DNA of 64,000 nt from an uncultured candidatus Brocadiaceae bacterium (GTDB taxonomy: Bacteria; Planctomycetota; Brocadiia; SM23-32): NCBI GenBank assembly GCA_964510315.1, contig CAZEAP010000014.1, positions 25,242 through 89,241 of the forward strand. Direction: 5' to 3'. Below, piece by piece: positions 4,132 to 46,510 of this stretch. A program made the position numbers and the translations under genes. Below the pieces are notes generated by a model. That model did no database searches and was not told the DNA's origin. It saw only the letters and a list, made by a program, of their open reading frames with translations. The first letter of the stretch is position 1; every line of letters begins with the position of its first letter.

Positions 4132-5490
4132 GTGCCCCCGCTGGCCTATCTTGCGGATGACACCGCGCTCTTCAGGGAGATTCTCGACATGGCCCCGACG
4201 GTAAGACGACCTGCTCAGCCGGACGTTCCGGTGCTGCACGAAGTCGACGTCATAGTTGTGGGCGGCGGGCCGGGAGGGATCGGCGCCGCCGTGGCCGCCG
4301 CCCGGCAGGGCGCCTCCACGCTGCTTTGCGAGCAATACGGGTTCCTCGGCGGGATGGCCACCGCCGGATTGGTCAACCCCTTCATGCCGAACCATCTGGA
4401 CGGGGAGTGGTTGGACTCCGGCGTCTTCACCGACTGGCTGGAGGTTATGGACGAGATGGGAGGGCTGTCCGACGACGGCCGGACATTCTGCCACGAGACG
4501 GCGAAGCTGGCCGCCGAGAAGCTCTGTCTGGACGCCGGGGTCGAGCTGCTCTACCACGTCCGGCTCGACGTCCCCCTGATGACCGGACCTCGCATCAACT
4601 CCGTGGTGATGCTCGGAAAAAGCGGGCTCACCGCGCACCGCGCCGAGGTCTACGTGGACGCCACGGGCGACGCCGACCTGGCCGCGCGCGCCGGCTGCGA
4701 ATACACGTTCGGCCGGCCGGAGGACCAGCAGGCGCAGGCCATGACCACCTGCTTCGACCTGGCCGGGGTGGAGCCCGAACGGATGCCCGACGGGCAAACG
4801 ATCAACGCCCTCTACGATACGGCCCGGGAGGAAGGGCGGCTGGAGTGCCCCCGCCAAAACGTTCTGTGGTTCAGGAGCGTCGAGAAGGACCGCATCCACT
4901 TCAACACCACCCGGATTCTCCGGCACAAGGCCACCGACACGCTCTCCCTCTCCGAGGCCGAGATGGAGGGCCGCCGCCAGGTGCTGGACTACCTGAGATT
5001 CCTGCGCCGGGACGTGGCCGGCTTCGAGAATGCACGGCTGCACGCCATCGCGGTGAATGTCGGCGTTCGAGAGTCCCGGCACGTCCGAGGCCACGCTTTG
5101 CTGACCCGTGAGGACTTCGAGGACGCCGCCAAGTTCCCCGACGGCATCTGTCGGGTCAACTACCCCATCGATATCCACAGCCCCACCGGCGGCGACACCG
5201 AGCACGCACACCTGCCGAAAGGCGAGTGGTACGAGATTCCCTACGGCTGCCTCGTCGCGCGCGACTGTGACAACCTGCTGGTCGGCGGACGGCCGATCAG
5301 CGTGGACCACGCCGTCCACAGTTCGATGCGGGTGATGCCGCCGGCCTGCACGGTGGGCCAGGCCGCCGGGACGGCCGCCGCGATGGCCGTCGAAAGCGGC
5401 GTCCCGCCGGCCGAGATCGACGGCCGGGACGTGCGCCGCAGCCTGATCGAGCAGGGCGTCTGGCTGGACGAGGTCGCGCGCTCCACCTGA
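4132..5490 (+). CDS. FAD-dependent oxidoreductase
   Basis: Rossmann dinucleotide motif VIVVGGGPGGIGAAVAAARQG close to the N-terminus. Start may be the internal ATG at 4189. Confidence 0.75.
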   Translation: MPPLAYLADDTALFREILDMAPTVRRPAQPDVPVLHEVDVIVVGGGPGGIGAAVAAARQGASTLLCEQYGFLGGMATAGLVNPFMPNHLDGEWLDSGVFTDWLEVMDEMGGLSDDGRTFCHETAKLAAEKLCLDAGVELLYHVRLDVPLMTGPRINSVVMLGKSGLTAHRAEVYVDATGDADLAARAGCEYTFGRPEDQQAQAMTTCFDLAGVEPERMPDGQTINALYDTAREEGRLECPRQNVLWFRSVEKDRIHFNTTRILRHKATDTLSLSEAEMEGRRQVLDYLRFLRRDVAGFENARLHAIAVNVGVRESRHVRGHALLTREDFEDAAKFPDGICRVNYPIDIHSPTGGDTEHAHLPKGEWYEIPYGCLVARDCDNLLVGGRPISVDHAVHSSMRVMPPACTVGQAAGTAAAMAVESGVPPAEIDGRDVRRSLIEQGVWLDEVARST

Positions 5491-5566
5491 GGGGGCGGGA
5501 AGGTTCGGCGGTTCGACCGGAGAGGACTATAATCACGGTTCTCGTCCCCGCAGGAGGAAACGCGGC

Positions 5567-6628
5567 GTGCTTGAACGTTGCCTCGATGACCTTGAAGCCC
5601 GGATCGACCCGGAGGTCGAGCGGGACATCCACCGGCGGTGGGTGGAGTTCACCGACGGGGACTTCGAGGGGGACGTCTTCAGCCCCGGCAGGCCGGAGCC
5701 GGCTCCACCGGCGGTGGAATGGCCGAAGGTCCCTGTGAACCGCGCGATCGAGGACTTCGACGCGATGGCGCTCGGCCAGCTTGCCGGCTGCTCCCGCGTG
5801 CTGGCGGAGGCCGGTGGCTCCCTGCTGTGCGTGCGCTGCAACTACGGCACCGGCATCCTGCCATCGCTCTTCGGAGCCGAGTTGTTCATGATGCCGGAGG
5901 AGACCAACACGCTGCCCACGGTCCGTCCCCTGGAAGGCGGCGCGGACGCGGTTCGGGAGCTGCTGGACCGCGGCGTACCCGACCTCACGGCCGGCCTCGG
6001 GGGGCAGGTCTTCCGCATGGCCGAACGGTTCCTGGAGATTGGGCGGGCCCGGCCGAAGGTCAGCGAACACGTCCACCTCTATCACCCCGACACTCAGGGC
6101 CCGATGGACGTCTGCGAGCTGCTCTGGGGGAGCGGACTGTTCACCGCCATCGTGGACGAGCCGGCGCTGGTGCAGGCACTGCTGGAGCTGGTCACCGAGA
6201 CCTACGTTCGCTTCATGAGGAGGTGGGAGGCGCTCGTGCCGTTCGAGAACGGCCACAACCCCCACTGGGGCCTGATGCACGGGGGGCGGATCATGCTGAG
6301 GGACGACTCGGCGATGAACTTCTCACCGGAGATGTTCCGCGAGTTCATCCGGCCTTACGACCAGCGCCTGCTGGAGGAGTTCGGCGGCGGGGCCGTGCAC
6401 TTCTGCGGCAGGGGCGATCACTACATCGATCAGGTCGCCGGGATGCGGGGCGTTTACGCCGTAAACCTCTCGCAGCCGACGTACAACGAGATGGAGCGCA
6501 TATTCCGACATACCGTGGACAGGGAGATCAACATCATCGGCCTGCCGGCCGAAGCGGCCCGCCAGGCCGTGGAGCGCGGCCGAGATTTGAGAGGGCGCGT
6601 TCACGCGACCGCCGGCCCCGTCCCTTGA
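5567..6628 (+). CDS. hypothetical protein (possible URO-D/MtaA-like fold)
   Basis: GTG start after a GGAGGAAACG RBS-like stretch. Coherent codon usage. HFCGRGDHYIDQVAGMRGVYAVNLS segment loosely resembles the HxCG region of the uroporphyrinogen decarboxylase family. Confidence 0.5.
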   Translation: MLERCLDDLEARIDPEVERDIHRRWVEFTDGDFEGDVFSPGRPEPAPPAVEWPKVPVNRAIEDFDAMALGQLAGCSRVLAEAGGSLLCVRCNYGTGILPSLFGAELFMMPEETNTLPTVRPLEGGADAVRELLDRGVPDLTAGLGGQVFRMAERFLEIGRARPKVSEHVHLYHPDTQGPMDVCELLWGSGLFTAIVDEPALVQALLELVTETYVRFMRRWEALVPFENGHNPHWGLMHGGRIMLRDDSAMNFSPEMFREFIRPYDQRLLEEFGGGAVHFCGRGDHYIDQVAGMRGVYAVNLSQPTYNEMERIFRHTVDREINIIGLPAEAARQAVERGRDLRGRVHATAGPVP

Positions 6629-11743: not shown

Positions 11744-13060
11744 ATGGACGACAACAGGGCCGAACAGATTCTGGACGCTGCACGCGACCGTTTCGACGCC
11801 GCCGAAGTCTTCGAAGAGACCTCGGAGACCATCAGCGTGAGCTTCGAGGACAACCGCCTCAAAGAGATCCAGTCCCGCCAGCGGCGCGGCGTCGGTCTGC
11901 GCGTGATCCAGGAGGGGCGGATCGGCTTTGCCTCCACGACCGACCTTCGGGAGGCGGAACCCCTGCTGCGGATGGCCGCCGCCAGCGCGGAATTCGGGGA
12001 CGAGGCGGAATTCGAGTTCCCCGGCCCGCCGGAGGAGATGCCGGGCCCGGGACTCTACGACGACGAGATGGAAGAGGTCGGTGCCGAGGAGATGGTGGAG
12101 ATCGGCCGGGAGGGACTGGCCCTCAGCCGGGAGGCCGACGAGGATTGCCTCTACGCCGCGCACCTGAACCGTTCACTCCGGCGGCAGCGCGTTCTGAACA
12201 GCAGCGGACTGGACCTATCCTACCGTTACAGCCGGATGTCGGCCGACGTTGAGGTGCAGAAGCTCGGCGAGAGCGGCCTCCTCCAGATATACGAATATAG
12301 AACCTGGGGGCGGCCGTTCGACTCGGTGGCCCCCCTGACCGGGACGGTTCTGGGGAAGATGCGGGACGCCGCCACCATCGCGCCGACCCGCCCCGAAGAG
12401 ATGCCGATGATCTTCACGCCGAAGTGCATCCGCACCCTCCTCCAGCCCGTCGAGGTGGCCCTCAACGGAAAGCGGGTCCACAAGGGCTCCTCGGTGCTGC
12501 GGGGTAGAATCGGCGAGCAGGTGCTGGATGAGCGGCTGACCCTGACCGACGATCCCGGCATGGATTTCGCCCCCGGCAGTTGCCCGGCCGACGACGAGGG
12601 GGTGCCCGCCCGCCGGCGGGAGCTGTTCGAGGACGGCGTCCTGCGCACGTATCTCGCCGACCTCCAGACCGCCGGACTGCTGGGCATAGAGCCAACCGGC
12701 CGCGGGTTCAGGAGCTACGCCGGTCGCCCGTCTCCGTCCACCACGAACGTGCTGATCGCACCGGGGGATACGCCGCTGGAAGATATGCTGGAGGGTATGG
12801 GGCGGGGGCTGATCATCGACCAGACGCTCGGCTCCGGCCAGAGCAACGTGCTGGCCGGGGAGTTCAGCATCAACGTCGGGCTGGGGTTCCTGGTCGAGGA
12901 CGGCGAGGTGCAAGGCCGGGTCAAGGACTGCATGGTGGCCGGGAACGTCTACGAGGTGCTGGGCCGGATCGAGGCACTGGGCACCGAGGCGGACTGGTTC
13001 GGCAGCATCTGCGCGCCGCCCGTCATGGTCGGCGGGCTCAAACTGGCCGCCCAGGGGTGA
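11744..13060 (+). CDS. pmbA: TldE/PmbA family protein (partner of TldD)
   Basis: Paralogous to the preceding gene (GxC...DDEGVP, MV(A)GN motifs) but lacks the HExxxH. This is the classic tldD-tldE tandem. Confidence 0.85.
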   Translation: MDDNRAEQILDAARDRFDAAEVFEETSETISVSFEDNRLKEIQSRQRRGVGLRVIQEGRIGFASTTDLREAEPLLRMAAASAEFGDEAEFEFPGPPEEMPGPGLYDDEMEEVGAEEMVEIGREGLALSREADEDCLYAAHLNRSLRRQRVLNSSGLDLSYRYSRMSADVEVQKLGESGLLQIYEYRTWGRPFDSVAPLTGTVLGKMRDAATIAPTRPEEMPMIFTPKCIRTLLQPVEVALNGKRVHKGSSVLRGRIGEQVLDERLTLTDDPGMDFAPGSCPADDEGVPARRRELFEDGVLRTYLADLQTAGLLGIEPTGRGFRSYAGRPSPSTTNVLIAPGDTPLEDMLEGMGRGLIIDQTLGSGQSNVLAGEFSINVGLGFLVEDGEVQGRVKDCMVAGNVYEVLGRIEALGTEADWFGSICAPPVMVGGLKLAAQG

Positions 13061-13070
13061 CGGTCCCTTC

Positions 13071-13582
13071 ACCACGGAGGCACGGAGGACACGGAGAACG
13101 GCAACGGAAAGGCGGGTCATGGGACGACCTCAACGGAGTGGCAGGATGCTGTTATCGGACGACATAACCGAACAGGTGATCGGTGCTGCGGTGGAGGTGC
13201 ATAGGGAACTCGGCCCGGGCTTGCTTGAGTCCGTATACGAGGAAGCACTGTGCCATGAACCGTCTCTCCGCGAGGTGGCTTTCGCGCGCCAGGTGCCCGT
13301 GCCAATCAGCTACAAAGGCGTCAACCTGGGCAGCGACTGCCGCATTGATATCCTTGCGGAGGATACGGTCATCGTGGAACTCAAGGCAGTCGCAGAAGTC
13401 CTCCCGGTGCACAAAGCGCAGTTGCTGAGCTACATGAGACTGAGCGGAAAGCAGGTTGGCCTTCTACTGAACTTCAACGTCGCCGTGCTGAAGGACGGTA
13501 TCGTGCGACGTGTGCTGTAGGTTGCTCGCCGTTGTTGCCCCCCACTCGTTCCGTTCTCCGTGTCCTCCGTGTCTCCGTGGTT
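13071..13582. mobile_element. putative miniature mobile cassette: GxxExxY gene bounded by 31-bp near-perfect terminal inverted repeats
   Basis: 13071-13101 ACCACGGAGGCACGGAGGACACGGAGAACGG. The reverse complement of 13551-13582 is AACCACGGAGACACGGAGGACACGGAGAACGG. Identity is 30/31. Confidence 0.55.
13146..13520 (+). CDS. GxxExxY family protein (PD-(D/E)xK nuclease-fold, selfish-element-like)
   Basis: Defining motif GPGLLESVYEEAL (G-x-x-E-x-x-Y). About 125 aa. Flanked by 31-bp inverted repeats (see findings). Confidence 0.7.
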   Translation: MLLSDDITEQVIGAAVEVHRELGPGLLESVYEEALCHEPSLREVAFARQVPVPISYKGVNLGSDCRIDILAEDTVIVELKAVAEVLPVHKAQLLSYMRLSGKQVGLLLNFNVAVLKDGIVRRVL

Positions 13583-27683: not shown

Positions 27684-28181
27684 GGGTTATTCATCCTCCC
27701 AGTTGCCGGGACGTGTCGACCCTTCTGTAAGAACGGTGGCGGGCGGCCGGGCGCGGCCGCACAGCAGCGCCGTCCCGTCCCCCCGGCACAACTTGATCCG
27801 GAGAGACACCACATAAAGCATACCTTCAAAGCGTTGGCTTTTGCAAGCCCTGCTCCCGCCGCCGGTCGGGACCACGACGCAGGGCTTGTCGGCGCGAGTG
27901 CGCAGGTGCTCCAGAAGCTGCGCTCCGGGCGGGGCACACTCTTCCGAAACCACCGGCGGAACCCGATACCCGGCCCGGCGCGCCCTGGACGTCCTCCGCG
28001 CCTCCACCTGCCCGCAGTGCCGGGCCGTCCTGCACGGGCCGTCCGGACGCGGCAAGCCAAAAGTGTCCTTTCTGTGGTTTCGCGTATACATCCGGCTCCG
28101 TACGCCGATTTGGATTTTGTGTCGTAAGTGCTTCCCCGCGCAAGCCCTGCGGTAAAATGGGTTCGTTTCGTAACCGGGGGT

Positions 28182-29232
28182 CAGTAATCAGTAGTCAGTA
28201 GAGAGTAGTCAGTAGTCAGTAGACAGTGGCCAGTAGGCAGTAGACAGTGGTCAGTAGACAGTAGACAGTGCCGGGCCATCCTGGTCGTACGTGTTCAGCG
28301 TCCAGAGCGACCCGGGCAACGCGGTATATCACACATCGCAGCCCCGCAGGGGCGTTACATACCAGCCCAGGGCATAGCCCTGGGGGTACTTGTAGCGCGA
28401 GCATCCCTGCTCGCAGTGCGCGGTATATCACACATCGCAGCCCCGCAGGGGCGTTACATACACAGCCCAGGGCGTAGCCCTGGGGACCCGGGTGTGGTCC
28501 CAAATAGTTGAGCCCTGTAGGGGCGAGACATACGCCGGGCAGCCGGGCCTCGTCCGGTACATGGCGACATGTCTGTCAACCTCAACGAAAAACGGTAGCA
28601 TCCCTGCTCGGAGTGCGCGGTATACCACACATCGCAGCCCCGCAGGGGCGTTACATACCAGCCCAGGGCGCAGCCCTGGGGGTACTTGTAGCGCGAGCAT
28701 CCCTGCTCGGAGTGCGCGGTATATCACACATCGCAGCCCCGCAGGGGCGTGACATACACAGCCCAGGGCGCAGCCCTGGGGACCCGGGTCCACCCCCCAA
28801 ATAGTTGAGCCCTGTAGGGGCGAGACATACGCCGGGCAGCCGAGACTCGTCCGGTACATGGCGACATGTCTGTCAACCTGAACGAAAGACGGTAGCATCC
28901 CTGCTCGGAGTGCGCGGTATACCACACATCGCAGCCCCGCAGGGGCGTTACATACCAGCCCACGGCGCAGCCCTGGGGGTACTTGTAGCGCGAGCATCCC
29001 TGCTCGGAGTGCGCAGTATATCACACATCGCAGCCCCGCAGGGGCGTTACATACACAGCCCAGGGCGTAGCCCTGGGGACCCGGGTGTGGTCCCAAATAG
29101 TTGAGCCCTGTAGGGGCGAGACATACGCCGGGCAGCCGGGCCTCGTCCGGTACATGGCGACATGTCTGTCAACCTGAACGAAAGACGGTAGACAGTAGTC
29201 AGTAGAGAGTAGTCAGCAGGGAGTAGGCAGCA
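28182..29232. repeat. nested tandem satellite: (CAGTAGN)n microsatellites flanking about three copies of a 297-bp unit built from three diverged 99-bp hairpin-containing subunits
   Basis: CAAATAGTTGAGCCC recurs at 28501, 28798 and 29094. Subunits X, Y1 and Y2 are each exactly 99 bp. Conserved hairpins GCCCC-GCA-GGGGC and CCCAGGGC-(gca/ata/gta)-GCCCTGGG. CAGTAGN heptamers at 28182-28270 and 29188-29232. Confidence 0.85.
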
Positions 29233-29532: not shown

Positions 29533-29561
29533 TTGACCCTATTCTAATGAGGGGATATAAT
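29533..29561 (+). promoter_or_regulatory. consensus sigma70 promoter TTGACC-N17-TATAAT upstream of cas3
   Basis: CTTGACCctattctaatgaggggaTATAAT. Perfect -10, near-perfect -35, 17-nt spacer, about 107 nt upstream of the cas3 ATG. Confidence 0.5.
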
Positions 29562-29674: not shown

Positions 29675-32323
29675 ATGCACGGATCGCCTGACAGTTTCTG
29701 GGGGAAGCTCCAGCGCGACGAAGAGGGCAGAGCGCGGTGCTGGCACCCACTGGAGGCGCACTGCGCCGATGTGGCGGCGGTCACGGGCGCGCTACTGAAG
29801 CACACGCTGCTGGGGGCTCGGCTCGCCCGACTGATCGGACAAAATGAACTGACCGATGTGCAGGTGGCAAGGCTCTGCGCTTTGGTTGCTCTGCACGACG
29901 CCGGTAAAGTCAATCACGGCTTCCAGGACCAGGCGCCGCCGAAGAGCCGGACACGCGGTGGCCACGTGCGGCCGCTGGTGGACTTCCTTCACGGGCCACG
30001 GGAAACGAAGGGGCGAATCGTTGAAGCGCTCGCACTGGAGCAGATGTCCGGCTGGTGTTGTTCAGAGTCTGGATTTATCTCCCTCCTGCTGTCTTCGTTT
30101 TGCCACCACGGCCGCCCATTGAAGCCCGCCGGCGGATTCGATCCCGGACTCTGGCGGCCCAACGGCCGCCGCGATCCGATAGCCGGCCTGCGGGAGCTGC
30201 GCGAAGCTGCCGTCCGATGGTTCCCTCAGGCGTGGCAGCCGGATCCGCCTTTCCCCTCCTGCCCGGAGTTCGCGCATGCCTTCAATGGAGTTGTAACCCT
30301 GGCCGACTGGATCGGTTCCGACGAGGAGTTCTTTCCGTATGCGAGAGACGGCTCCGACCGCATGCCGGTTGCGTGGGAACGCGCGCGCAATGCCGTCGGC
30401 CGCCTGGGGCTTGACGTGGCGACAGCTCGTCTGTCTCGCGGCGCCGAACCCCCCGGCTTTGGGGAGGTCGCGCCTTACGAGCCTCATCCGGTGCAACGGG
30501 CCTGCGCGGGGCTGCCGCCTCACCCCGAAGGCAGTTTGGCCCTGATCGAATCGGACACCGGCTCGGGGAAGACCGAAGCCGCTTTGGTGCGGTTCCTGCA
30601 ACTGCTGCACGCGGGACTGGTCGACGGGATGTACTTCGCCCTGCCGACGCGCGCTGCCGCTACTCAACTGCACGGGCGGGTTGTGAAGGCCGTAGCCAGG
30701 GCGTTCTCTCGCCGAGAGTCGTGCCCGTCGGTCGTCCTTGCCGTGCCGGGATACCTGCGGGTCGACGAGGCCGAGGGCCGGCGGCTGCCCGAGTTCCGAG
30801 TCCTTTGGCCCGACAAAGAAAGAGACCGCTGGCGCTACCGGGGCTGGGCCGCCGAGAGTTCAAAGAGGTATCTGGCCGCCCCCATCGCCGTGGGGACAGT
30901 GGACCAGGTGCTGCTGTCCGCTCTTCAGGTCAGGCACGCCCATCTGCGAGCAACAGCCCTCCTGCGACACCTGTTGGTGGTAGACGAGGTGCATGCCTCC
31001 GACCCGTACATGGGACGTCTACTGGAGGAAGTGCTCCGCTCTCACCTGCGGGCCGGCGGCCATGCTCTCCTCATGTCGGCCACCCTCGGCACGGCGGCCC
31101 AGGCGCGGCTGCTCGGCCGCCCCGGGTCCGCTCCTCCGGCCCTGGCCGAGGCGCGCGGGATGGCCTATCCCCTGGTGAGCCATCGCTCCGTTGCGGAGGG
31201 GACCATCGAGCGGATCAGCAGCCGGCCCACCGGTTACGAGAAAACTGTAGCCATCAAACTGCTGCCCGCGGCCGGAACCCCGCAGACCTTCGTGCCCATG
31301 GCGCTGGAGGCGGCTTCGCTGGGCGCCCGTGTGCTCATCATCCGCAACACCGTTCGCGACTGCGTGGCCACACAACTTGTCCTGGAAGCGGCAGCGGGGG
31401 ACTCCGTCTCGGTTCTTCTCGCTGCCGAAGGGGTGGTCGCCCCTCACCACTCTCGTTACGCAGCGTGCGACCGCGAGCTGCTGGACGAAGCGGTCGAGAC
31501 AGCCTTTGGCAAGGAGGCGCCACCAGACGGGGTCGTCGCGGTCGCCACGCAGACCGTCGAACAGAGCCTGGACATCGACGCCGACCTGATGATCACCGAC
31601 CTCTGCCCGGCCGACGTCCTTCTTCAACGGATTGGTCGGCTGCACCGCCATCCGGAGCGCCGGCCCCCTGCTTCCCGGCCTGATAAATGCCGCCGGCCCC
31701 GCTGCATCGTTCTCGTTCCCGAACAGCGTTCTTTGGAAAGTCACATCGGCGAGGACGGCCCGGCCTACGGCCCGCACGGCCTCGGAACAGTCTATGAGGA
31801 CCTCCGGGCACTGGAGGCCACCTGGCGGCTGATCGAGGAGAACGCCCAATGGGCCATCCCCGCCATGAATCGCGAACTGGTCGAGGAGGCCACCCATCCC
31901 GAGGCCCTGGAGGCGCTGGTCCGCTCGCTCGGCGGCAGGTGGCCCCGTCACCAGAATTACGTCCTCGCACTTCGCAGCGCGGATCAAGCCCAGGCCGGCA
32001 TAGCCCTCCTGGCTCGGGACAAACCCTTCGGTGAAGTGTTGTTCCCGACGGACCCGGGCGAACGAATAAAAACGCGCCTGGGGGAGGGGGACCGTCTTGC
32101 GGAGTTCCAGACCGAGATGGAGGGCCCTTTCGGTGGCACTTACCGCCGCCTGGACCTCCCCCACTTCTATGCCCCCGAAGCACCCGAAGACGCCTCACCG
32201 CAGAACCCCGTGGTAGAGAACGGAACGCTGCGTTTCACCTTCGGCAACCGGCGTTTTGTCTACAACCGCCTCGGCCTGCATCCGGCCGACGCAGACTATT
32301 TGGAGGAGTCAGGCCATGAATGA
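29675..32323 (+). CDS. cas3: CRISPR-associated helicase/nuclease Cas3 (type I, HD + SF2 helicase)
   Basis: N-terminal HD motifs (HCADVAAV..., LHDAGK), helicase motif I ESDTGSGKTEAAL, motif II VVDEVHASD, C-terminal domain. First gene of the I-E operon. Confidence 0.9.
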   Translation: MHGSPDSFWGKLQRDEEGRARCWHPLEAHCADVAAVTGALLKHTLLGARLARLIGQNELTDVQVARLCALVALHDAGKVNHGFQDQAPPKSRTRGGHVRPLVDFLHGPRETKGRIVEALALEQMSGWCCSESGFISLLLSSFCHHGRPLKPAGGFDPGLWRPNGRRDPIAGLRELREAAVRWFPQAWQPDPPFPSCPEFAHAFNGVVTLADWIGSDEEFFPYARDGSDRMPVAWERARNAVGRLGLDVATARLSRGAEPPGFGEVAPYEPHPVQRACAGLPPHPEGSLALIESDTGSGKTEAALVRFLQLLHAGLVDGMYFALPTRAAATQLHGRVVKAVARAFSRRESCPSVVLAVPGYLRVDEAEGRRLPEFRVLWPDKERDRWRYRGWAAESSKRYLAAPIAVGTVDQVLLSALQVRHAHLRATALLRHLLVVDEVHASDPYMGRLLEEVLRSHLRAGGHALLMSATLGTAAQARLLGRPGSAPPALAEARGMAYPLVSHRSVAEGTIERISSRPTGYEKTVAIKLLPAAGTPQTFVPMALEAASLGARVLIIRNTVRDCVATQLVLEAAAGDSVSVLLAAEGVVAPHHSRYAACDRELLDEAVETAFGKEAPPDGVVAVATQTVEQSLDIDADLMITDLCPADVLLQRIGRLHRHPERRPPASRPDKCRRPRCIVLVPEQRSLESHIGEDGPAYGPHGLGTVYEDLRALEATWRLIEENAQWAIPAMNRELVEEATHPEALEALVRSLGGRWPRHQNYVLALRSADQAQAGIALLARDKPFGEVLFPTDPGERIKTRLGEGDRLAEFQTEMEGPFGGTYRRLDLPHFYAPEAPEDASPQNPVVENGTLRFTFGNRRFVYNRLGLHPADADYLEESGHE

Positions 32324-37224: not shown

Positions 37225-38109
37225 ATGCTCAAAGGACGCCTCGGTCTGCACACAGCCAGAATCCCTCAAGCCGACCGCCACGGCCTCCTCTGGCTCGAAC
37301 GCGGCAAACTCTACGTGGAGGAAGGCACCCTCGCCTTCGTCACCGCCGGCAGCGATTCCCTCGAACAGGGCAGATACCAGATACCCTACCAGGCCATCTC
37401 CAACATCCTGCTCGCCCCGGGCTCCACAGTCAGCCACGACGCATTCCGGCTGCTCGCCTCCCATGGCACCGGCCTGCTCATCGTGGGCTCCGGAGGGGTC
37501 AGGTTCTACGCCGCCAGCGCGCCGTTCGGAGCCGACCGCTCCGAACTCGCACGGCGCCAGACCCGCCTTTGGGCCGACGAAGACCGGCGCATCGAGGTGG
37601 CCCGGAGGATGTACGCCATACGCCTCGGCGAAACCCTCCCGCACCAGGACCTCGATGCCCTTCGTGGCGTGGAAGGCCACCGCATGAAAATACTTTACAA
37701 GCGCCTGGCCAGGAAACACGGCGTCCAATGGTCGGGACGCCGTTACGACAGATCAAGCCCCCAGAGCGACGACCTCCCCAACACGGCTATAAACCATGCC
37801 TCTTCCGCCGTCCGTGCCGCCGCGATGGTCGCCGTCGCCGCCACCGCCACCATCCCTCAGCTCGGCTTCATCCACGAGGCCTCCGCCCAGGCATTCGTGC
37901 TGGACATCGCGGACCTGTTCCGCGTCAACGTCACCCTCACCGTCGCCTTTCGCGCGGTGAAGCGGCACGAGAGGCAAGGCTGGGAGGACATCGAGAGAAC
38001 CACTCGTCGGCTCACCGGCCGGACACTGAGGGAACAGGAAGTCATCCCCCAGATGATTGATAACATCAAGGAGCTGCTCAATGTCCATGACACTGGCCAT
38101 AACGCGTAA
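37225..38109 (+). CDS. cas1: CRISPR integrase Cas1 (I-E type)
   Basis: Conserved Cas1e blocks (ILLAPGSTVSHDAFRLLASHGTGLLIVGSGGVRFYA; metal-binding E/H/D region ...FIHEA...). Confidence 0.9.
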   Translation: MLKGRLGLHTARIPQADRHGLLWLERGKLYVEEGTLAFVTAGSDSLEQGRYQIPYQAISNILLAPGSTVSHDAFRLLASHGTGLLIVGSGGVRFYAASAPFGADRSELARRQTRLWADEDRRIEVARRMYAIRLGETLPHQDLDALRGVEGHRMKILYKRLARKHGVQWSGRRYDRSSPQSDDLPNTAINHASSAVRAAAMVAVAATATIPQLGFIHEASAQAFVLDIADLFRVNVTLTVAFRAVKRHERQGWEDIERTTRRLTGRTLREQEVIPQMIDNIKELLNVHDTGHNA

Positions 38110-38437
38110 CGTACCCGGTCGCTTCCGGGGCTTCCTGGCCTCCTGCATGCTGGAGGTCGGCCCCGGCGTCTATGCCGCACCCCACCTGCGCAAAGCCGTC
38201 CGCGAACGCCTCTGGCGGGTCATGCTCGACTGGGCCGGTCAGGTTCCCGAGGGCGGAGGAGTGATGCTCATGTGGCGTGACAGGGAAGCGCCCTCCGGCC
38301 TCAGTATCCGCACCCTCGGCTGGCCCAAAACCGAGATCGTCTCCCACGAGGGCATCTGGCTCAGCCAGCGCGACCTCACCGCCGAACACGACGTCGAAGA
38401 ACTCCAGCAACTCGTCGCCGGAACCGAAGAGGACTGA
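38081..38437 (+). CDS. cas2: CRISPR adaptation protein Cas2 (I-E type)
   Basis: MSMTLAITRNVPGRFRGFLASCMLEVGPGVYA matches the Cas2e N-terminus. Overlaps the cas1 3' end. Confidence 0.85.
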   Translation: MSMTLAITRNVPGRFRGFLASCMLEVGPGVYAAPHLRKAVRERLWRVMLDWAGQVPEGGGVMLMWRDREAPSGLSIRTLGWPKTEIVSHEGIWLSQRDLTAEHDVEELQQLVAGTEED

Positions 38438-38584
38438 ACCATCCTCACCGCTCTTTGACAAATAGCTATACGGGGGCTGGCCCAACGGGGAGGCCGGCCC
38501 CTCCATGTCTCACGGGTTGCACCGACAGATTGAGCCCATACAATATATTGTAGTCGGCTTGCTGCCGGCCCGCAGCATGTGAGA
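38438..38584 (+). promoter_or_regulatory. CRISPR leader
   Basis: 147 bp between cas2 and the first repeat. Contains TTGACA at 38455 and the AT-rich perfect palindrome TACAATATATTGTA (about 38543-38556). Confidence 0.6.
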
Positions 38585-41500
38585 GGTTCCCCCGCACACG
38601 CGGGGATAGTCCCGAGAGAAGCTGCGCGACGAGCGAAAGGCGCGCGGTTCCCCCGCACACGCGGGGATAGTCCCAAAATCAAACCCGGTTGCCAGCCCGG
38701 TGAGTAGGTTCCCCCGCACACGCGGGGATAGTCCTTGCGCCGGGTCGGCCGGAAGGCTCCGGGGGGGGGTTCCCCCGCACACGCGGGGATAGTCCCAAGG
38801 CTGGGAATACCGGCGGGGCTCAGGAGCTGGTTCCCCCGCACACGCGGGGATAGTCCTTGGGGGAAGAGGCAGCACTGCCGGTACGTAGTGGTTCCCCCGC
38901 ACACGCGGGGATAGTCCGCGATGGAGAAACCTGGACCAGCGGGGCACCGCGGTTCCCCCGCACACGCGGGGATAGTCCGCGACTGAAGGCCGTGACGCAG
39001 GAAATGCCCCCGGTTCCCCCGCACACGCGGGGATAGTCCGCGGATTGGGAATCGGCGGGATACAAAACGGGGGGTTCCCCCGCACACGCGGGGATAGTCC
39101 CGAGGCGGGGCAGTGGGCGCTGGCGGCGATGAAGGTTCCCCCGCACACGCGGGGATAGTCCGTAGCCGCTCATCTCAACTCCTCGCTCTGGCGAGGTTCC
39201 CCCGCACACGCGGGGATAGTCCCGGCGGTGCACGGGCCTGACACGCGGCGTGCAGGGTTCCCCCGCACACGCGGGGATAGTCCGCGGGTGTGGACGGCAA
39301 TCAAGGACCTGGCGAGGGTTCCCCCGCACACGCGGGGATAGTCCCCAACGTGCGATCGAGCTGACCCTGACTGGCCTGGTTCCCCCGCACACGCGGGGAT
39401 AGTCCTTTTGTTGGAGGAACAAAAGGCTCTGAGGGAGTGGTTCCCCCGCACACGCGGGGATAGTCCCCCGAGACTTTAACTGCATACGTGCATCCTATTG
39501 GTTCCCCCGCACACGCGGGGATAGTCCGTGACAGTACCATCGCCGACCAGAACGCCGACGGGTTCCCCCGCACACGCGGGGATAGTCCCTTACTGCTGTT
39601 GAAATGCCGACCGCTTCTCGTGGTTCCCCCGCACACGCGGGGATAGTCCTTGCGAGCCTTGCTGTTCGGCAGGCCCTCGACGGGTTCCCCCGCACACGCG
39701 GGGATAGTCCCGCTGGCATGTACTGGCCCGGGGGAGGAGCCCAGGTTCCCCCGCACACGCGGGGATAGTCCGATGGTCCAACGCAAACGCTTTGCGTTGT
39801 CCTTGGTTCCCCCGCACACGCGGGGATAGTCCATTGGTACGGGGGCTCCGGTCAGCGCGGTATCGGGTTCCCCCGCACACGCGGGGATAGTCCTTCTCAT
39901 CTTCTTTGGACTCCTTTTGGGGAAAAGGTTCCCCCGCACACGCGGGGATAGTCCCGGTCTTTTCATCTACGCAATCGAAGTAGATGAGGTTCCCCCGCAC
40001 ACGCGGGGATAGTCCCTTCGGTTTCGTCTGTTGCGGGAACGTGCCCTTGGTTCCCCCGCACACGCGGGGATAGTCCCATCCGGCCTCCAAAGCTTGACAC
40101 TGCCCTACCGGTTCCCCCGCACACGCGGGGATAGTCCTTCTCATCCGCCTCCAACCCGTACACGAACAAAGGTTCCCCCGCACACGCGGGGATAGTCCGT
40201 CCTTTGTGGGCAAGGGGTTATGACGTGCAATGGTTCCCCCGCACACGCGGGGATAGTCCCCAGCTTTTCCCCAAAAGGAGTCCAAAGAAGATGGTTCCCC
40301 CGCACACGCGGGGATAGTCCCCTTGCGGAATCGACAGATAGCGAGCCCAACCAGGTTCCCCCGCACACGCGGGGATAGTCCCCTTCCGAACCTACTGCGT
40401 GAAAACTGGACAGAGGTTCCCCCGCACACGCGGGGATAGTCCCACCCCCTCGATCTTCGCGGCCGCCCACTCGAAGGTTCCCCCGCACACGCGGGGATAG
40501 TCCCGGGAGACAGACTGATGGCACTGACGGCAGCGAGGTTCCCCCGCACACGCGGGGATAGTCCCGTAGACCTCTCCAGTCCAGTCCAGCATCGCCGGGT
40601 TCCCCCGCACACGCGGGGATAGTCCATCCGGAGCTTGGTCAATCTGTTTCGGATCTAAGGTTCCCCCGCACACGCGGGGATAGTCCCCAGCTCCCAGCAC
40701 GTTGCGCACAGCCGGGCTCGGTTCCCCCGCACACGCGGGGATAGTCCCCTACTCTTACGGGAGGACGCCGATGGCCGATGGGTTCCCCCGCACACGCGGG
40801 GATAGTCCCCGGGCGAAGCTCGTGCCGAAGATACCGGGGTCGGTTCCCCCGCACACGCGGGGATAGTCCCTCGCCGGCCTCCAGGTCCGTCGTGGGGCAC
40901 TCGGTTCCCCCGCACACGCGGGGATAGTCCGCCTTATTACCTGAAGCGCGATTTACGCGAGGCGGTTCCCCCGCACACGCGGGGATAGTCCGAGATAGCG
41001 GATTACTTCCGTGGCGGTTGTCTGGGTTCCCCCGCACACGCGGGGATAGTCCCTATCCGCCCGCATAGCCCTTGTGCTAACCCTGGGTTCCCCCGCACAC
41101 GCGGGGATAGTCCTCGCAAAAGATCAAGGCCCCGGGTTCCAAGCAAGGTTCCCCCGCACACGCGGGGATAGTCCTCACGAAGACGGACGTTGAGAGGGCC
41201 CTTAAAGGGTTCCCCCGCACACGCGGGGATAGTCCCTCAGCCATTTGACCCCCCCATATGGATAACTGGGTTCCCCCGCACACGCGGGGATAGTCCCGTA
41301 GCCTTCGAGTAGGCAATGCCGTCGGCGTTGGTTCCCCCGCACACGCGGGGATAGTCCTTCTCCCCCTCCCGGGCGCTGCCGGAGGCACCGGGTTCCCCCG
41401 CACACGCGGGGATAGTCCCCTTGTATAGGTCAACGTACGGAGCCGTTTTCTGGTTCCCCCGCACACGCGGGGATAGTCCGCCGTTGACCGGGCACGTGGC

Positions 41501-44500
41501 GAGGTCGCGGTGGGTTCCCCCGCACACGCGGGGATAGTCCCGGCCAGCCCCGTAATCGTCGTTCCGGTATGCGGGTTCCCCCGCACACGCGGGGATAGTC
41601 CGGTGCGCACGCGCGTGATGCGGCGCGACCTGCGGGTTCCCCCGCACACGCGGGGATAGTCCCACGCCGAGGGTGCCCAGCACCTCCGTCAGGCTGGTTC
41701 CCCCGCACACGCGGGGATAGTCCCGCATCGGCGTCCGTGGGGTCCGTCATGCTGATGGTTCCCCCGCACACGCGGGGATAGTCCGCGCAGGTCCTCCGGC
41801 CGGGCGCCACCCTCGAGGGTTCCCCCGCACACGCGGGGATAGTCCGCGGGTGGACGTGACACCCCGCTACCTCAGCGAGGTTCCCCCGCACACGCGGGGA
41901 TAGTCCCGACGGCCCGGAGTGGGTGATCGAGATCGAGGAGGTTCCCCCGCACACGCGGGGATAGTCCGCGCACGATCGCCCCCCTGCCGGAGGGCATGAC
42001 GGTTCCCCCGCACACGCGGGGATAGTCCGTGTACGACCGCCGGCAGCCGCGGGTCATCGGGGGTTCCCCCGCACACGCGGGGATAGTCCCCTCTACATGA
42101 TATGCACGGTTGCGCATGTCCTGGTTCCCCCGCACACGCGGGGATAGTCCCGGTACTCCCGTCTACGGCATCCCCCTCTCTGCGGTTCCCCCGCACACGC
42201 GGGGATAGTCCTCGCTCCTACACCGGCAACGTCCGGGGACTCGCGGTTCCCCCGCACACGCGGGGATAGTCCCGACGGCATCGAGGGTATCCTTGCCGAG
42301 GTCGTGGTTCCCCCGCACACGCGGGGATAGTCCACTCGCTCGCGGGGTCCGGCGGGGTCTGACCCGGGTTCCCCCGCACACGCGGGGATAGTCCCAGCGT
42401 GTGGCCGGAGCGCTTCCCGGCCGGGGAGGTTCCCCCGCACACGCGGGGATAGTCCGCCTTATTACCTGAAGCGCGATTTACGCGAGGCGGTTCCCCCGCA
42501 CACGCGGGGATAGTCCGAGATAGCGGATTACTTCCGTGGCGGTTGTCTGGGTTCCCCCGCACACGCGGGGATAGTCCCTATCCGCCCGCATAGCCCTTGT
42601 GCTAACCCTGGGTTCCCCCGCACACGCGGGGATAGTCCTCGCAAAAGATCAAGGCCCCGGGTTCCAAGCAAGGTTCCCCCGCACACGCGGGGATAGTCCT
42701 CACGAAGACGGACGTTGAGAGGGCCCTTAAAGGGTTCCCCCGCACACGCGGGGATAGTCCCTCAGCCATTTGACCCCCCCATATGGATAACTGGGTTCCC
42801 CCGCACACGCGGGGATAGTCCCGTAGCCTTCGAGTAGGCAATGCCGTCGGCGTTGGTTCCCCCGCACACGCGGGGATAGTCCTTCTCCCCCTCCCGGGCG
42901 CTGCCGGAGGCACCGGGTTCCCCCGCACACGCGGGGATAGTCCCCTTGTATAGGTCAACGTACGGAGCCGTTTTCTGGTTCCCCCGCACACGCGGGGATA
43001 GTCCTTGGGGGGGTTAGTCGTCGTCCTGGAGTACTGCGGTTCCCCCGCACACGCGGGGATAGTCCCTTCGGTTTCGTCTACGGGAACATGCTGGCCTTGG
43101 TTCCCCCGCACACGCGGGGATAGTCCGATGCTCCAGCGAAGGCGCTTCTGATTCTGCTTGGTTCCCCCGCACACGCGGGGATAGTCCGTCAGGCCCTTAT
43201 TGGCTTGGCTACCGATATTCGGTTCCCCCGCACACGCGGGGATAGTCCCGTAGGGGACGTACACCGCTCCAGATCTGGCCTGGTTCCCCCGCACACGCGG
43301 GGATAGTCCGTAACGGCAGAGGAGCCCAGGGGAAAGAAATCCGGTTCCCCCGCACACGCGGGGATAGTCCCCTGGGCGGGGCAGTCGACGCATCCGCACT
43401 GGAGGTTCCCCCGCACACGCGGGGATAGTCCGTAGCCGCTCATCTCAGCTCCTCGCCCGGGCGAGGTTCCCCCGCACACGCGGGGATAGTCCCTGCTCGC
43501 ACGGGGAGGCAGCGCATACGCTAAAGGTTCCCCCGCACACGCGGGGATAGTCCTAGGGGAACCGGGAGGCAAAGTTCTGGTTCTGGGGTTCCCCCGCACA
43601 CGCGGGGATAGTCCGGTAACAGAACAATAAGGCAGTGAATGAAGGAGGGTTCCCCCGCACACGCGGGGATAGTCCGTGCCCCGGTGCCAGAGGAGCCGGC
43701 GGCGCTATGGTTCCCCCGCACACGCGGGGATAGTCCTCCCGTTTGGATGAACAGCCTTCCCATTCCACAGGTTCCCCCGCACACGCGGGGATAGTCCTCT
43801 ACAGGTTTCTGGACATCCCTCTTACATAGCGGTTCCCCCGCACACGCGGGGATAGTCCCCATCCCTTCTTCGTCTGCATGAAGAAGGAGCTGGTTCCCCC
43901 GCACACGCGGGGATAGTCCCGTGGTTCTTTACACGGAAGTTGTCAGCCTTGAGGTTCCCCCGCACACGCGGGGATAGTCCCCTGATGGCAAAGAACCGTG
44001 AAACCGGACGGGCGGTTCCCCCGCACACGCGGGGATAGTCCCGGTGATGAGGAGTTCATCCCTCTGGCGAATGAGGTTCCCCCGCACACGCGGGGATAGT
44101 CCCGCCGCCGGAGCCGATCCCGTACTCGACAGGCTGGTTCCCCCGCACACGCGGGGATAGTCCCTCAACCTGCACGATCTCATGGCACCAGTCAAGGGTT
44201 CCCCCGCACACGCGGGGATAGTCCTTCTAAAACGTGGCATCCTGCGGTATCTGAGGTGGTTCCCCCGCACACGCGGGGATAGTCCTCCGGCTCAGAGCAG
44301 TTGCTGCCTGCCGCGGAAGGTTCCCCCGCACACGCGGGGATAGTCCTTTGCTATAGCAAACGGTGTGCCAACGTGCCGCGGTTCCCCCGCACACGCGGGG
44401 ATAGTCCCCGCCACCGCCCGCCCTCGAACGCCGGCTGGAGGGTTCCCCCGCACACGCGGGGATAGTCCGCCGTTCCAGGCGGACTGGATCGACGCGAGCC

Positions 44501-44652
44501 GGGTTCCCCCGCACACGCGGGGATAGTCCCGAGCGGGGGCAGTGGGCGCTGGCGGCGATGAAGGTTCCCCCGCACACGCGGGGATAGTCCCGGCCTCACC
44601 AGGCCGCGGAGCAGCGACTGGCGGGTTCCCCCGCACACGCGGGGATAGTCCT
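38585..44652 (+). CRISPR. Type I-E CRISPR array: 100 repeats of 29 bp (GGTTCCCCCGCACACGCGGGGATAGTCCN) with 99 spacers of 32 nt
   Basis: Strict 61-bp periodicity from 38585; the 100th repeat sits at exactly 44624. Repeat hairpin CCCCGC-ACAC-GCGGGG plus an 8-nt 3' handle ATAGTCCN whose last base varies (C/T/G/A). Leader-proximal to cas2, same strand as the cas genes. Confidence 0.95.
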
Positions 44653-44696
44653 TTTGTGTCCCCATTTCCCAAAACAGGCGAAAGGAGAAAGGAAAG

Positions 44697-44876
44697 ATGT
44701 TTAGAAAGCTCAGCCGGTGGTGGTATACAACCGGCCGGAGAATAAGGAAAGGCCGCGCCTTGTGGCACTTAGCCACAGGGCGCCCGGGGCCTTTTGTGTA
44801 TAGGCTCCTGTACAAGGCTTCGTTCCGGATCATCGCACCGGTGATCCGGGGCCTAATCAATCTGTTTCGGGTCTAA
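44697..44876 (+). CDS. small basic protein (59 aa) encoded inside the CRISPR locus between the main array and the terminal mini-array
   Basis: AAAGGAGAAAGGAAAG-ATG strong RBS. MFRKLSRWWYTTGRRIRKGRALWHLATGRPGPFVYRLLYKASFRIIAPVIRGLINLFRV. Lower GC and rare codons (AGA, AGG, ATA, TTA, CTA). Coding frame supported by silent/conservative differences to a matching spacer. Confidence 0.55.
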   Translation: MFRKLSRWWYTTGRRIRKGRALWHLATGRPGPFVYRLLYKASFRIIAPVIRGLINLFRV

Positions 44877-44909
44877 TTGTGCGTGGGTTCCCCGCCAGGC
44901 GGTCGTGCC

Positions 44910-44999
44910 GGTTCCCCAGCACACGCGGGGATAGTCCGTGGGCGAAGGGCTTGAGACGCGTGAGCCTGTCGGTTCCCCCGCACACGCGGGGATAGTCCC
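44910..44999 (+). CRISPR. terminal mini-array: degenerate repeat (C9A, stem-disrupting) - 32-nt spacer - perfect repeat, preceded by a 24-nt repeat-like fragment (44886-44909)
   Basis: GGTTCCCCAGCACACGCGGGGATAGTCCG / TGGGCGAAGGGCTTGAGACGCGTGAGCCTGTC / GGTTCCCCCGCACACGCGGGGATAGTCCC. Separated from the main array by 257 bp of non-repeat DNA. Confidence 0.8.
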
Positions 45000-45148
45000 G
45001 GTCTCCAGCAGGACGCGCACCGTTGCGACGCGTCCGCGGATGGCGGTACGGTGCAGAGGCGTGTGGGCTTCGTCGTTCTGGATGTGGGGTGCGGGGTGGC
45101 GGAAGGGGGTTGATTCGGGGGGCGGGTTGGGGGAGAATCTACACTGAG

Positions 45149-46510
45149 ATGATCCAGGACGAACGGGTACAGGCGCTGAACGACGGGGAGGTGGCCGGGG
45201 GCAGTTACGTGGTGTACTGGATGCAGCAGGCCGCCCGCGCCGACTGCAACCACGCCCTGGAGTACGCCGTCCGCAGGGCCAACGAACTGCAGCTCCCTGT
45301 TGTGGCGGCTTTCGGGATCACCCAGAGGTTCCCGGGCGCCAACGAGCGGCATTACGCCTTCATGCTGGAGGGGCTCGCTGAAACACGCTCCCGGCTGGCG
45401 GAGCGGGGCATTGGGCTGGTGGTGCGCCTCAGCCCTCCGGTGGAGCTGATCCTGGGGCTGGCCGGGGAGGCGGCGCTGGTGGTGACCGACCGGGGCTACC
45501 TGAAGATTCAGCGCAACTGGCGACGCCGCGCGGCCCAACGGGCCGCCTGCCGGGTGGAGCAGGTCGAGACCGACGTGGTGGTGCCGGTGGAGACGGCCTC
45601 CGATGAGGAACAGTGGGCCGCCCGCACGCTGCGTCCCCGCATCCACGAGCATCTGGACAGGTTCCTGGCGCCCCTGGAGGAGACCTCCCTGGAGAGGGAC
45701 TCGGTGGGGTTGGTGGAAGAGGGCCTGGAGCTGGACGACGTGGAGGGTCTGCTGGAGGAGATGCGGGTCAGCCGCAGCGCCGGGCCGGTCTCCGCGTTCC
45801 GGGGGGGCGCTTCGCGGGCGGAGCGGTTGCTGGAGGAGTTCTGCGCGGACCGGCTGCCCGGCTACGCCGAGAGCGCGGGCGACCCCAACGCGGAGTGCGT
45901 CAGCCACATGAGCCCTTACCTGCACTTCGGGCAGATTTCCCCTCTCCGCATTGCCCTGCGGGTCTCGGCGGAGGAGGGAGCCGGGCGGAAGAACATCGAC
46001 GCCTACCTCAAGGAGCTGATCGTGCGGAGGGAGTTGAGCATGAACTTCTGCCTTTACAACGGGCGCTACGACTCCTTCGCGTGCCTGCCGGAATGGGCGA
46101 GGCAGACGCTGCGGCAGCATGCCGGCGACGAGCGGCCCTACCTCTACAGCCGGGAGGAGCTGGCGAAGGCCGGGACGCACGATCCCTACTGGAATGCCGC
46201 CCAGCGGCGCATGATGCAGACGGGGAAGATGCACAACCGCATGCGGATGTACTGGGGGAAGAAGATATTGGAATGGACGGCGGACCCCGAAGAGGCCTTC
46301 CGCACGGCGCTGGAGCTGAACAACCGCTACGAGCTGGACGGACGCGACCCGAACAGCTACGCCGGAGTGGCCTGGTGTTTCGGCAAGCACGACCAGGGGT
46401 GGGCCGAACGGGATGTGTTCGGGAAGGTGCGCTACATGAACGCGGCCGGCCTGGAGAGGAAGTTCGACGCGGAGACGTACGTCCGGGAGACACCCGGAGC
46501 GGGGGGATAG
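45149..46510 (+). CDS. phr: class II CPD deoxyribodipyrimidine photolyase
   Basis: N-terminal YVVYWMQQAARADCNHALEYA (class II signature) and C-terminal FAD-binding block WNAAQRRMMQTGKMHNRMRMYWGKKILEW. ATG at 45149. Confidence 0.85.
   Translation: MIQDERVQALNDGEVAGGSYVVYWMQQAARADCNHALEYAVRRANELQLPVVAAFGITQRFPGANERHYAFMLEGLAETRSRLAERGIGLVVRLSPPVELILGLAGEAALVVTDRGYLKIQRNWRRRAAQRAACRVEQVETDVVVPVETASDEEQWAARTLRPRIHEHLDRFLAPLEETSLERDSVGLVEEGLELDDVEGLLEEMRVSRSAGPVSAFRGGASRAERLLEEFCADRLPGYAESAGDPNAECVSHMSPYLHFGQISPLRIALRVSAEEGAGRKNIDAYLKELIVRRELSMNFCLYNGRYDSFACLPEWARQTLRQHAGDERPYLYSREELAKAGTHDPYWNAAQRRMMQTGKMHNRMRMYWGKKILEWTADPEEAFRTALELNNRYELDGRDPNSYAGVAWCFGKHDQGWAERDVFGKVRYMNAAGLERKFDAETYVRETPGAGG

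Follow-up and report, generated by a model that had tools for sequence, protein, structure and literature searches.

A stretch of 64,000 nucleotides (nt) from one contig of an uncultured candidatus Brocadiaceae bacterium, hereafter the window, carries a complete type I-E CRISPR-Cas locus whose array of 100 identical repeats is followed by 258 nt of non-repeat DNA (the insert), ending in a degenerate repeat-like stub, and by a mini-array of two repeats around a single spacer. The explanation we favor, with slightly less than even confidence, is that the insert is a scrap of foreign DNA from a family of mobile elements sampled by this same array, which was caught between two repeats and now acts as a transcription terminator at most. 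DNA from an element family targeted by the array, to which spacer 34 points, would have slipped in between two repeats close to the array's old end. The most probable route would be recombination of array repeats with a repeat-like unit that the element brought along, of which the stub would be the trace. Rather than a regulator, the two repeats and one spacer past the stub would be a relic, left either by the array end or by a mini-array that the element itself possessed. A 59-codon open reading frame (ORF) inside the insert, ORF59, would be a gene of the donor element left stranded, possibly once half of a pair made of an anti-CRISPR and a repeat mimic, or else a chance ORF.

The insert belongs to a known class, that of interrupted arrays and stray mini-arrays, and is a somewhat unusual member of it; nothing in the analyses run shows selection for it. 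Were the proposed origin correct, the locus would be a clean case of a CRISPR array capturing DNA of the kind of element that it fights, and it would imply that repeat mimics on mobile elements can serve as recombination handles into host arrays, with a bearing on the origin of mini-arrays and on how arrays become interrupted. Because a spacer of the array is paired with a diverged copy of this array-embedded ORF, ORF59 is also a cheap candidate for anti-CRISPR or toxin activity.

Anatomy of the insert

The main array consists of 100 perfect copies of the repeat GGTTCCCCCGCACACGCGGGGATAGTCC at a strict 61-nt period and ends at position 44651 of the window (coordinates of all features are collected in Table 1). 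Because the orientation of the repeats agrees with that of the cas genes, the insert region lies at the old (trailer) end of the array. The insert measures 258 nt with the repeat taken as 28 nt, or 257 nt with the 29-nt repeat adopted in an earlier, sequence-only reading of this DNA, and its GC content is 0.56 compared to 0.66-0.74 in the flanks. Both its composition and its codon usage look foreign. The sequence-only reading had described a periodic 100-repeat array giving way to lower-GC non-array DNA, a 24-nt repeat-like fragment and a two-repeat mini-array with a stem-disrupting C-to-A change in its first repeat, as well as a highly basic 59-amino-acid (aa) ORF that is rich in rare codons, stands behind a Shine-Dalgarno (SD) sequence and is matched at its 3' end by a spacer of the array. 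Each of these features was recovered, with the particulars given here and in the following sections.

The repeat-like stub, GGTTCCCCGCCAGGCGGTCGTGCC, begins 9 nt after the stop codon of ORF59 and runs up to repeat 101. Its 5' part agrees with the repeat at 9 of 11 positions; the likeness is confined to the 5' ~10 nt and includes gaps, and the stub possesses neither the repeat hairpin, as judged by fold prediction, nor the ATAGTCC handle. Apart from this 3' stub, no repeat remnants above chance are present in the insert. The possibility that the whole insert is a decayed portion of the array was considered and rejected: the best ungapped match to the repeat (14/28) equals the shuffle expectation, the distance from repeat 100 to repeat 101 is 286 nt and no multiple of 61, and the 28 nt that precede the segment resembling spacer 34 agree with the repeat at only ~10/28 positions, counted by eye. 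A known RNA was likewise discarded, as neither an Rfam family nor a tRNA could be matched to the insert, and so were transposon-like ends, since terminal inverted repeats are absent and a 10-nt direct repeat, CCTTTTGTGT (44650 and 44790), is no more than chance would give.

Spacer 34 and a targeted relative of the insert

When the insert is compared with the rest of the window, spacer 34 of the main array is the only significant match (blastn E = 9e-5). It aligns over all 33 nt, 28 of them identical, with the last ten codons and the stop codon of ORF59, which argues that a relative of the insert DNA was once a CRISPR target. To judge from the alignment, the CRISPR system took spacer 34 from a relative of the insert DNA of about 85% identity, and we consider this conclusion firm. 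In the frame of the ORF, the insert encodes IRGLINLFRV* where spacer 34 encodes IRSLVNLFRI*. All five differences are transitions, each is synonymous or conservative in that frame, and the stop is kept; in all other frames the comparison yields stops or radical changes. In simulation, all-conservative changes with a kept stop arose in 7-18% of random cases, and the pattern of divergence may be read as a weak sign of coding constraint.

Similar relationships exist among other spacers of the array. Two pairs are full-length near-duplicates with 2-3 differences (spacers 9 and 98, at 39101 and 44530, and spacers 10 and 80, at 39162 and 43432), and spacers 22 and 28 (39894 and 40260) overlap by 29 nt on opposite strands. 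These pairs suggest that the array sampled variant copies of the same elements more than once, by repeated or primed acquisition. Attempts to reach the donor element through other spacers (22/28 and 9/98) produced no matches, and when the whole array was compared with phages and plasmids the matches were other type I-E arrays only, through the repeat.

Mobile elements with homology to this array do exist, as illustrated by a viral contig, L015 (IMGVR_UViG_3300049728_000129; 6.5 kb, GC 52%), which carries a solitary copy of the repeat identical at 27 of 28 positions (GGTTCCCCCGCACACGCGGGGATAGACC, 5385-5412). About 50 nt downstream of that repeat there is a GAGGAGG SD sequence followed by a very basic ORF of 41 aa (5463-5588), which has no similarity to ORF59. 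On sequence grounds, this repeat and its ORF are a candidate RNA anti-CRISPR locus for this repeat family.

An orphan ORF with two strong hairpins

The predicted product of ORF59 has an isoelectric point of 12, a net charge of +13.6 and not a single Asp or Glu. Its SD core, GGAG 9 nt upstream of the ATG, is comparable in kind and spacing to those of the cas genes. Among dinucleotide shuffles of the 258-nt insert, 8% contain an ATG ORF of 59 codons or longer, and 1.1% contain one that in addition has an SD core. Its codons include AGA, ATA, TTA, CTA, ACA and AAT, which are rare in the genes of the window (about 0.3-5 per thousand), and GC at the three codon positions is 0.47/0.52/0.70 versus 0.67/0.50/0.82 for those genes. 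Codon 3 is AGA, and a consecutive run of rare codons, AGA-ATA-AGG (window frequencies of 3.4, 5.2 and 10.5 per thousand, respectively), lies 14 codons from the start, directly before the first of two hairpins. The purine-rich, SD-like tract that precedes the ATG, GGAGAAAGGAAAG, recurs 53 nt downstream as the near-copy GGAGAATAAGGAAAGG, with an in-frame TTG 7 nt past this second tract; this recurrence may reflect a partial duplication, or no more than chance in a purine-rich stretch.

ORF59 is an orphan: about 15 billion proteins in all yielded no relative. An exhaustive phmmer search of 1.84 billion protein representatives returned ORF59 itself, translated tandem repeats and a WD40 protein, and a search of 5.8 billion protein clusters returned only itself, from the NCBI record of this 89-kb contig. 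The comparisons with phages and plasmids that had been suggested alongside the sequence-only reading produced no relative either: tblastn of ORF59 gave nothing below E = 1, and blastn of the insert revealed no relative. A codon-aware pattern built on the C-terminus found one chance match in IMG/VR and ten in JGI metagenomes, and a match in a GTDB genome of Vogesella was treated as spurious, as it falls within a cluster of flagellar genes and straddles the boundary between a long ORF and the one that follows. No known family could be assigned from Pfam, PHROGs or PADLOC, nor any solved structure by sequence search of the PDB or by fold search, and the AlphaFold model consists of a two-helix hairpin only, with a pLDDT of 69.

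The + strand of the insert folds better than its shuffles (z = -3.2) because of two hairpins, HP1 and HP2, both contained within ORF59. HP1 (-36.6 kcal/mol, z = -4.8) is flagged as terminator-like on both strands, and the 3' arm of HP2 overlaps the segment that resembles spacer 34. Two hairpins of such strength sit awkwardly with an ordinary protein gene. As predicted structures, they fit a transcription stop ~100 nt past the last working repeat, and most likely all that the insert does today would be to end transcription of the 6-kb precursor CRISPR RNA (pre-crRNA) at HP1. If HP1 terminates, the mini-array beyond it would be poorly expressed.

The mini-array beyond the insert

Repeats 101 and 102 are as those of the cas-adjacent array in sequence, orientation and 61-nt unit (44910 to 44971), save for the C>A change at 44918. 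This change removes the C9-G18 pair of the stem; the predicted hairpin is weakened from -13.1 to -10.5 kcal/mol, and its stem becomes slipped and bulged. The spacer between them shares no 8-mer with positions 44600-45150; in the window as a whole it has no exact match to a 12-nt seed in which every sixth position is ignored, and its one-mismatch matches are at chance level. A putative target in virus L015 (2566-2598; 22/33 overall and 18/20 in the core) was rejected as being at chance level after 101 queries.

Two repeat-like sequences around a 33-nt spacer resemble regulatory mini-arrays, whose spacers measure 20-60 bp. In type I-E systems, such units are located between cas3 and cas8e and carry a seed of at least 10 nt to the cas8 promoter next to a protospacer-adjacent motif (PMC10120712; bioRxiv 10.1101/2023.03.10.532045). 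The unit described here is like these CreR-type mini-arrays in that, within a type I-E locus, two repeats enclose one spacer-length sequence at a distance from the main array. It differs in that it lies beyond the array, in that cas3 and cse1 overlap here, leaving no intergenic space between them, and in that its spacer has no seed match in the window, which argues against a cas-regulating mini-array.

Weighing the explanations

Four observations speak for the capture of mobile-element DNA: the homology of spacer 34, the foreign look of composition and codon usage, the repeat-like stub 9 nt past the ORF stop, an arrangement known from acr-racr loci (PMC10651486), and the solitary copy of the repeat on a viral contig. 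Several others count against it. The phage, plasmid, IMG/VR, JGI metagenome, GTDB and protein collections searched yielded no relative of either the insert or ORF59, and a mobile-element origin therefore rests on indirect evidence. Neither terminal inverted repeats nor target-site duplications mark the insert, and the junction of the stub with a full repeat is not what a simple crossover between repeats predicts. The terminator role of HP1 is a prediction, and the U-tract that follows the hairpin is short. Finally, ORF59 may be, or may have been, a real gene with a function not visible here, since an SD core, an ATG and 59 codons coincide in only ~1% of shuffles and the differences from spacer 34 are conservative, with the stop kept.

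The main rival, unlikely in our estimate yet deserving to be taken seriously, holds that the insert is the native trailer and terminator of the present cas-array cassette. The stub and the mini-array would then be the rest of an older array at this site after replacement or duplication of the cassette, spacer 34 would derive from the homologous trailer of an incoming, for example plasmid-borne, CRISPR locus, and ORF59 would be there by chance. Indeed, related genomes contain arrays built on this repeat or a close variant of it, and their ends show that non-repeat DNA followed by stray repeats is not unusual. The terminal repeats of L017 and L023 keep only the 5' GGTTCCCCC of the repeat, much like the stub here, while in L025 (GCA_054032615.1, JBPNPG010000019.1) 19 repeats are followed by 294 nt of non-repeat DNA, a degenerate repeat and a diverged second copy of the same trailer. 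The duplicated unit of repeat and ~300-nt trailer in L025 spans 12443-13080, and each copy holds the hairpin GGCTGCTGCAC..GCAGCAGCC. These array ends agree with a survey of type I-E loci that reported standalone repeats in 53% and mini-arrays in 19% (PMC10120712). Furthermore, plasmids often carry type I-E arrays whose repeats are related, and GC-rich trailers readily yield basic ORFs of ~58 aa, one of which is found in L025. However, unlike the two trailer copies of L025, the 258 nt are neither homologous to the sequence after repeat 102 nor duplicated there; the stub is not the last element here, with two good repeats and a spacer still to come, and a spacer of the array matches the insert. 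The lower GC and foreign codon usage set the insert apart from the neighboring chromosome, repeat 102 is perfect although terminal and old array ends are normally degenerate, and the combination of SD, ATG and ORF has a p of ~0.01. A false link between array and insert, with the unit of repeat, insert, repeat, spacer and repeat residing elsewhere or on another replicon, is given only a slight probability. One hundred identical repeats and an internal duplication of nine spacers invite such an artefact, and an independent assembly of the same sequencing run (SRR7048227) breaks at repeat 1 and inside repeat 102. That assembly, starting within repeat 102, runs into the photolyase gene downstream; because it spans the junction from repeat 102 through the trailer to this gene, the junction is real, and of the joins of the insert region it is the only one covered by this check. 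The structure of repeat, 258 nt, repeat, spacer and repeat also stands whatever lies to its left.

The remaining readings assign the insert a present function. That it is a still-functional counter-defence cassette of a mobile element, with ORF59 as an anti-CRISPR (Acr)-type protein and the stub or mini-array as a repeat-mimic RNA, both expressed from the tail of the pre-crRNA, seems improbable to us. Repeat-mimic Racr units adjoin acr genes, one lying 11 nt downstream of acrIC5, and solitary units act as RNA anti-CRISPRs (PMC10651486). Like these acr-racr pairs and viral solitary repeats, and like virus-borne mini-CRISPRs (PMC6858448), the insert region combines a small ORF behind a good SD, a repeat-like unit within ~10 nt (9 nt) of it and a one-spacer mini-array; its DNA is related to something that the host array targets, and tolerated self-matches of the kind seen between spacer and ORF relative usually point to anti-CRISPRs. 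Virus L015, with a solitary copy of this repeat family and a small, basic, SD-led ORF 50 nt downstream, extends the parallel. Against it, the unit resides in the array of a host instead of on a mobile element, the stub is a very poor copy of the repeat with neither its fold nor its handle, and there is neither a promoter nor an aca-type regulator gene. ORF59 is similar to no known Acr or other protein in Pfam, PHROGs, PADLOC or the PDB (by sequence or fold), is extremely basic with no acidic residue and contains two strong hairpins, and an active anti-CRISPR in the host's own intact 100-spacer array would be self-defeating. By analogy, an acr-racr-like origin of the insert, as distinct from a present function, is possible but unproven. 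The sequence-only reading had offered a mobile element carrying an anti-CRISPR or a solitary repeat as its alternative; this fits better than the CreTA-like module that it had put first, while the relative of the insert that it would call for is missing from the collections searched.

CreTA modules are CRISPR-repressed pairs of toxin and antitoxin RNAs known from the type I-B systems of Haloarcula hispanica and Halobacterium hubeiense. The CreT toxins require a good start codon behind a strong SD, two consecutive rare codons immediately downstream of it and a stable stem-loop, and their own promoter is repressed by Cascade with an RNA made of a degenerate repeat-spacer-repeat whose spacer partly matches that promoter (PMC8501985). 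Transferred to the present locus, ORF59 would be an RNA toxin that sequesters rare tRNAs, with ribosomes stalled on AGA-AUA-AGG at HP1, or would encode a toxic basic peptide, and would be silenced by Cascade with the crRNA-like RNA of the mini-array. The resemblance is not empty: a strong SD and an AUG are followed by three consecutive rare Arg and Ile codons and, directly after the AGG, by the stem-loop HP1, and a repeat-spacer-repeat with one imperfect repeat is close by. The regulatory half, however, is missing. A scan for sigma-70-like promoters that does detect those of the leader and of cas3 found none on either strand of 44400-45300; between repeat 100 and the ATG of ORF59 there are just 45 nt, and the toxin candidate offers Cascade no promoter of its own to repress. 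The spacer of the mini-array shares no 8-mer with the insert and lacks an exact seed match in the window. In addition, the rare codons are 14 codons away from the start, ORF59 reads through the hairpin to a length of 59 codons, the mini-array has near-perfect repeats and a full-length spacer, and the unit sits at the trailer end, outside the cas operon, around an orphan ORF that is conserved in no relative. A CreTA-like addiction module is thus very unlikely, and both it and the counter-defence cassette lack their defining features. A variant that does without a CreA-type guide is a long shot: ORF59 could be a toxin message in the tail of the pre-crRNA that is guarded by Cascade assembly itself. 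A Cas6e cut in repeat 100 would leave an RNA with a crRNA 5' handle, and Cas5 and Cas7 loading from this handle would coat the next ~33 or more nt, over the SD at 44684-44696, and block translation. Loss of cas genes, or a block of Cascade by an anti-CRISPR, would free the SD, whereupon ribosomes would meet AGA-AUA-AGG before a -36 kcal/mol hairpin and sequester tRNA as CreT does, or would make the +14 charged peptide; either outcome would penalise the loss of immunity. Such a system, if real, would have no precedent as an addiction module that is lodged within a type I-E array and protected by the assembly of the crRNA-protein complex itself. Scarcely credible is a second leader driving a small second array, the case that the sequence-only reading had named as speaking against its own proposal. 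AT-richer DNA does stand directly upstream of a repeat-spacer-repeat in the same orientation, but the insert is not similar to the real leader, no promoter-like site is found in it, and it is devoid of the motifs GCTCTTTGACAA and ATGT[G/C]AGA, which stand next to repeat 1 and are common to the leaders of four related loci (the comparison names this locus, L016 and L019). Nor has the putative second array grown past one spacer.

Locus setting and neighboring features

The type I-E cas operon is complete and runs on the + strand of the window from cas3 to cas2, upstream of the leader and the array. Pfam assignments of the cas genes were taken from the independent assembly of run SRR7048227. The closest relatives of Cas1 share 73-74% identity and belong to metagenome-assembled genomes of Planctomycetota/Brocadiia, and the photolyase encoded downstream of the array has a best relative of 67-68% identity at most; given these distances, a close genome for synteny comparison is lacking.

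Table 1. Coordinates of the insert, its surroundings and the CRISPR-Cas locus in the window
Feature	Position	Strand	Remark
cas3	29675-32323	+	Pfam assignment
cse1, cse2, cas7, cas5, cas6e	between cas3 and cas1, in that order	+	
cas1	37225-38109	+	
cas2	38081-38437	+	
Leader, 147 nt	38438-38584	+	promoter-like site at 38522-38549
Main type I-E array	38585-44651	+	100 identical 28-nt repeats, 99 spacers of 33 nt
Spacer 34, ATCCGGAGCTTGGTCAATCTGTTTCGGATCTAA	40626-40658	+	28/33 over full length to 3' end of ORF59
Repeat 100	44624-44651	+	perfect copy, last of periodic array
Non-repeat insert, 258 nt	44652-44909	+	between repeats 100 and 101
Purine-rich SD-like tract, GGAGAAAGGAAAG	44684-44696	+	immediately 5' of ORF59 ATG
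ORF59, 59 aa	44697-44876	+	annotated as a gene solely in the NCBI record for this contig
Near-copy of purine tract, GGAGAATAAGGAAAGG	44737-44752	+	53 nt downstream, just before HP1 (read from sequence)
Rare-codon run AGA-ATA-AGG, codons 15-17	44739-44747	+	immediately 5' of HP1
HP1, long GC-rich hairpin (44747-44795) running into TTTTGTGT	44747-44799	+	inside ORF59
HP2, 14-bp stem, 3-nt loop	44822-44852	+	-22.5 kcal/mol, z = -5.3
Segment resembling spacer 34	44844-44876	+	last 10 codons and stop of ORF59
Degenerate repeat-like stub, GGTTCCCCGCCAGGCGGTCGTGCC, 24 nt	44886-44909	+	directly adjoins repeat 101
Repeat 101	44910-44937	+	one mismatch, C>A at 44918, in stem (27/28)
Mini-array spacer, GTGGGCGAAGGGCTTGAGACGCGTGAGCCTGTC, 33 nt	44938-44970	+	no target found in window
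Repeat 102	44971-44998	+	perfect copy, last repeat

Within the main array, nine consecutive spacers (39-47; 40931-41451) recur exactly as spacers 64-72 (42456-42976), which is either a real internal duplication or an effect of assembly. In a related array of 70 repeats (L016), one spacer (12755-12803) is 49 nt long versus the usual 33 nt, for a repeat spacing of 77. Between repeat 102 and the photolyase gene there is a very G-rich stretch (45080-45148) with a GC skew of up to +0.6. The start of the photolyase gene is ambiguous: the public call (P0001, 466 aa) implies a TTG at 45110, and the first ATG is at 45149.

At the other end of the locus, cas3 is preceded by a near-consensus sigma-70 promoter, TTGACC-17-TATAAT, at 29533-29561, ~115 nt upstream of the gene. 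Farther upstream, positions 28180-29232 are occupied by a large tandem repeat with a period of 297 nt and a sub-period of 99 nt (2.9 copies, 95% identical), which has runs of the heptamer GTCAGTA on both sides. In two of its copies, Acido-Lenti-1 RNA (RF01687) scores above the Rfam threshold on the - strand (28340-28384 and 28636-28680).

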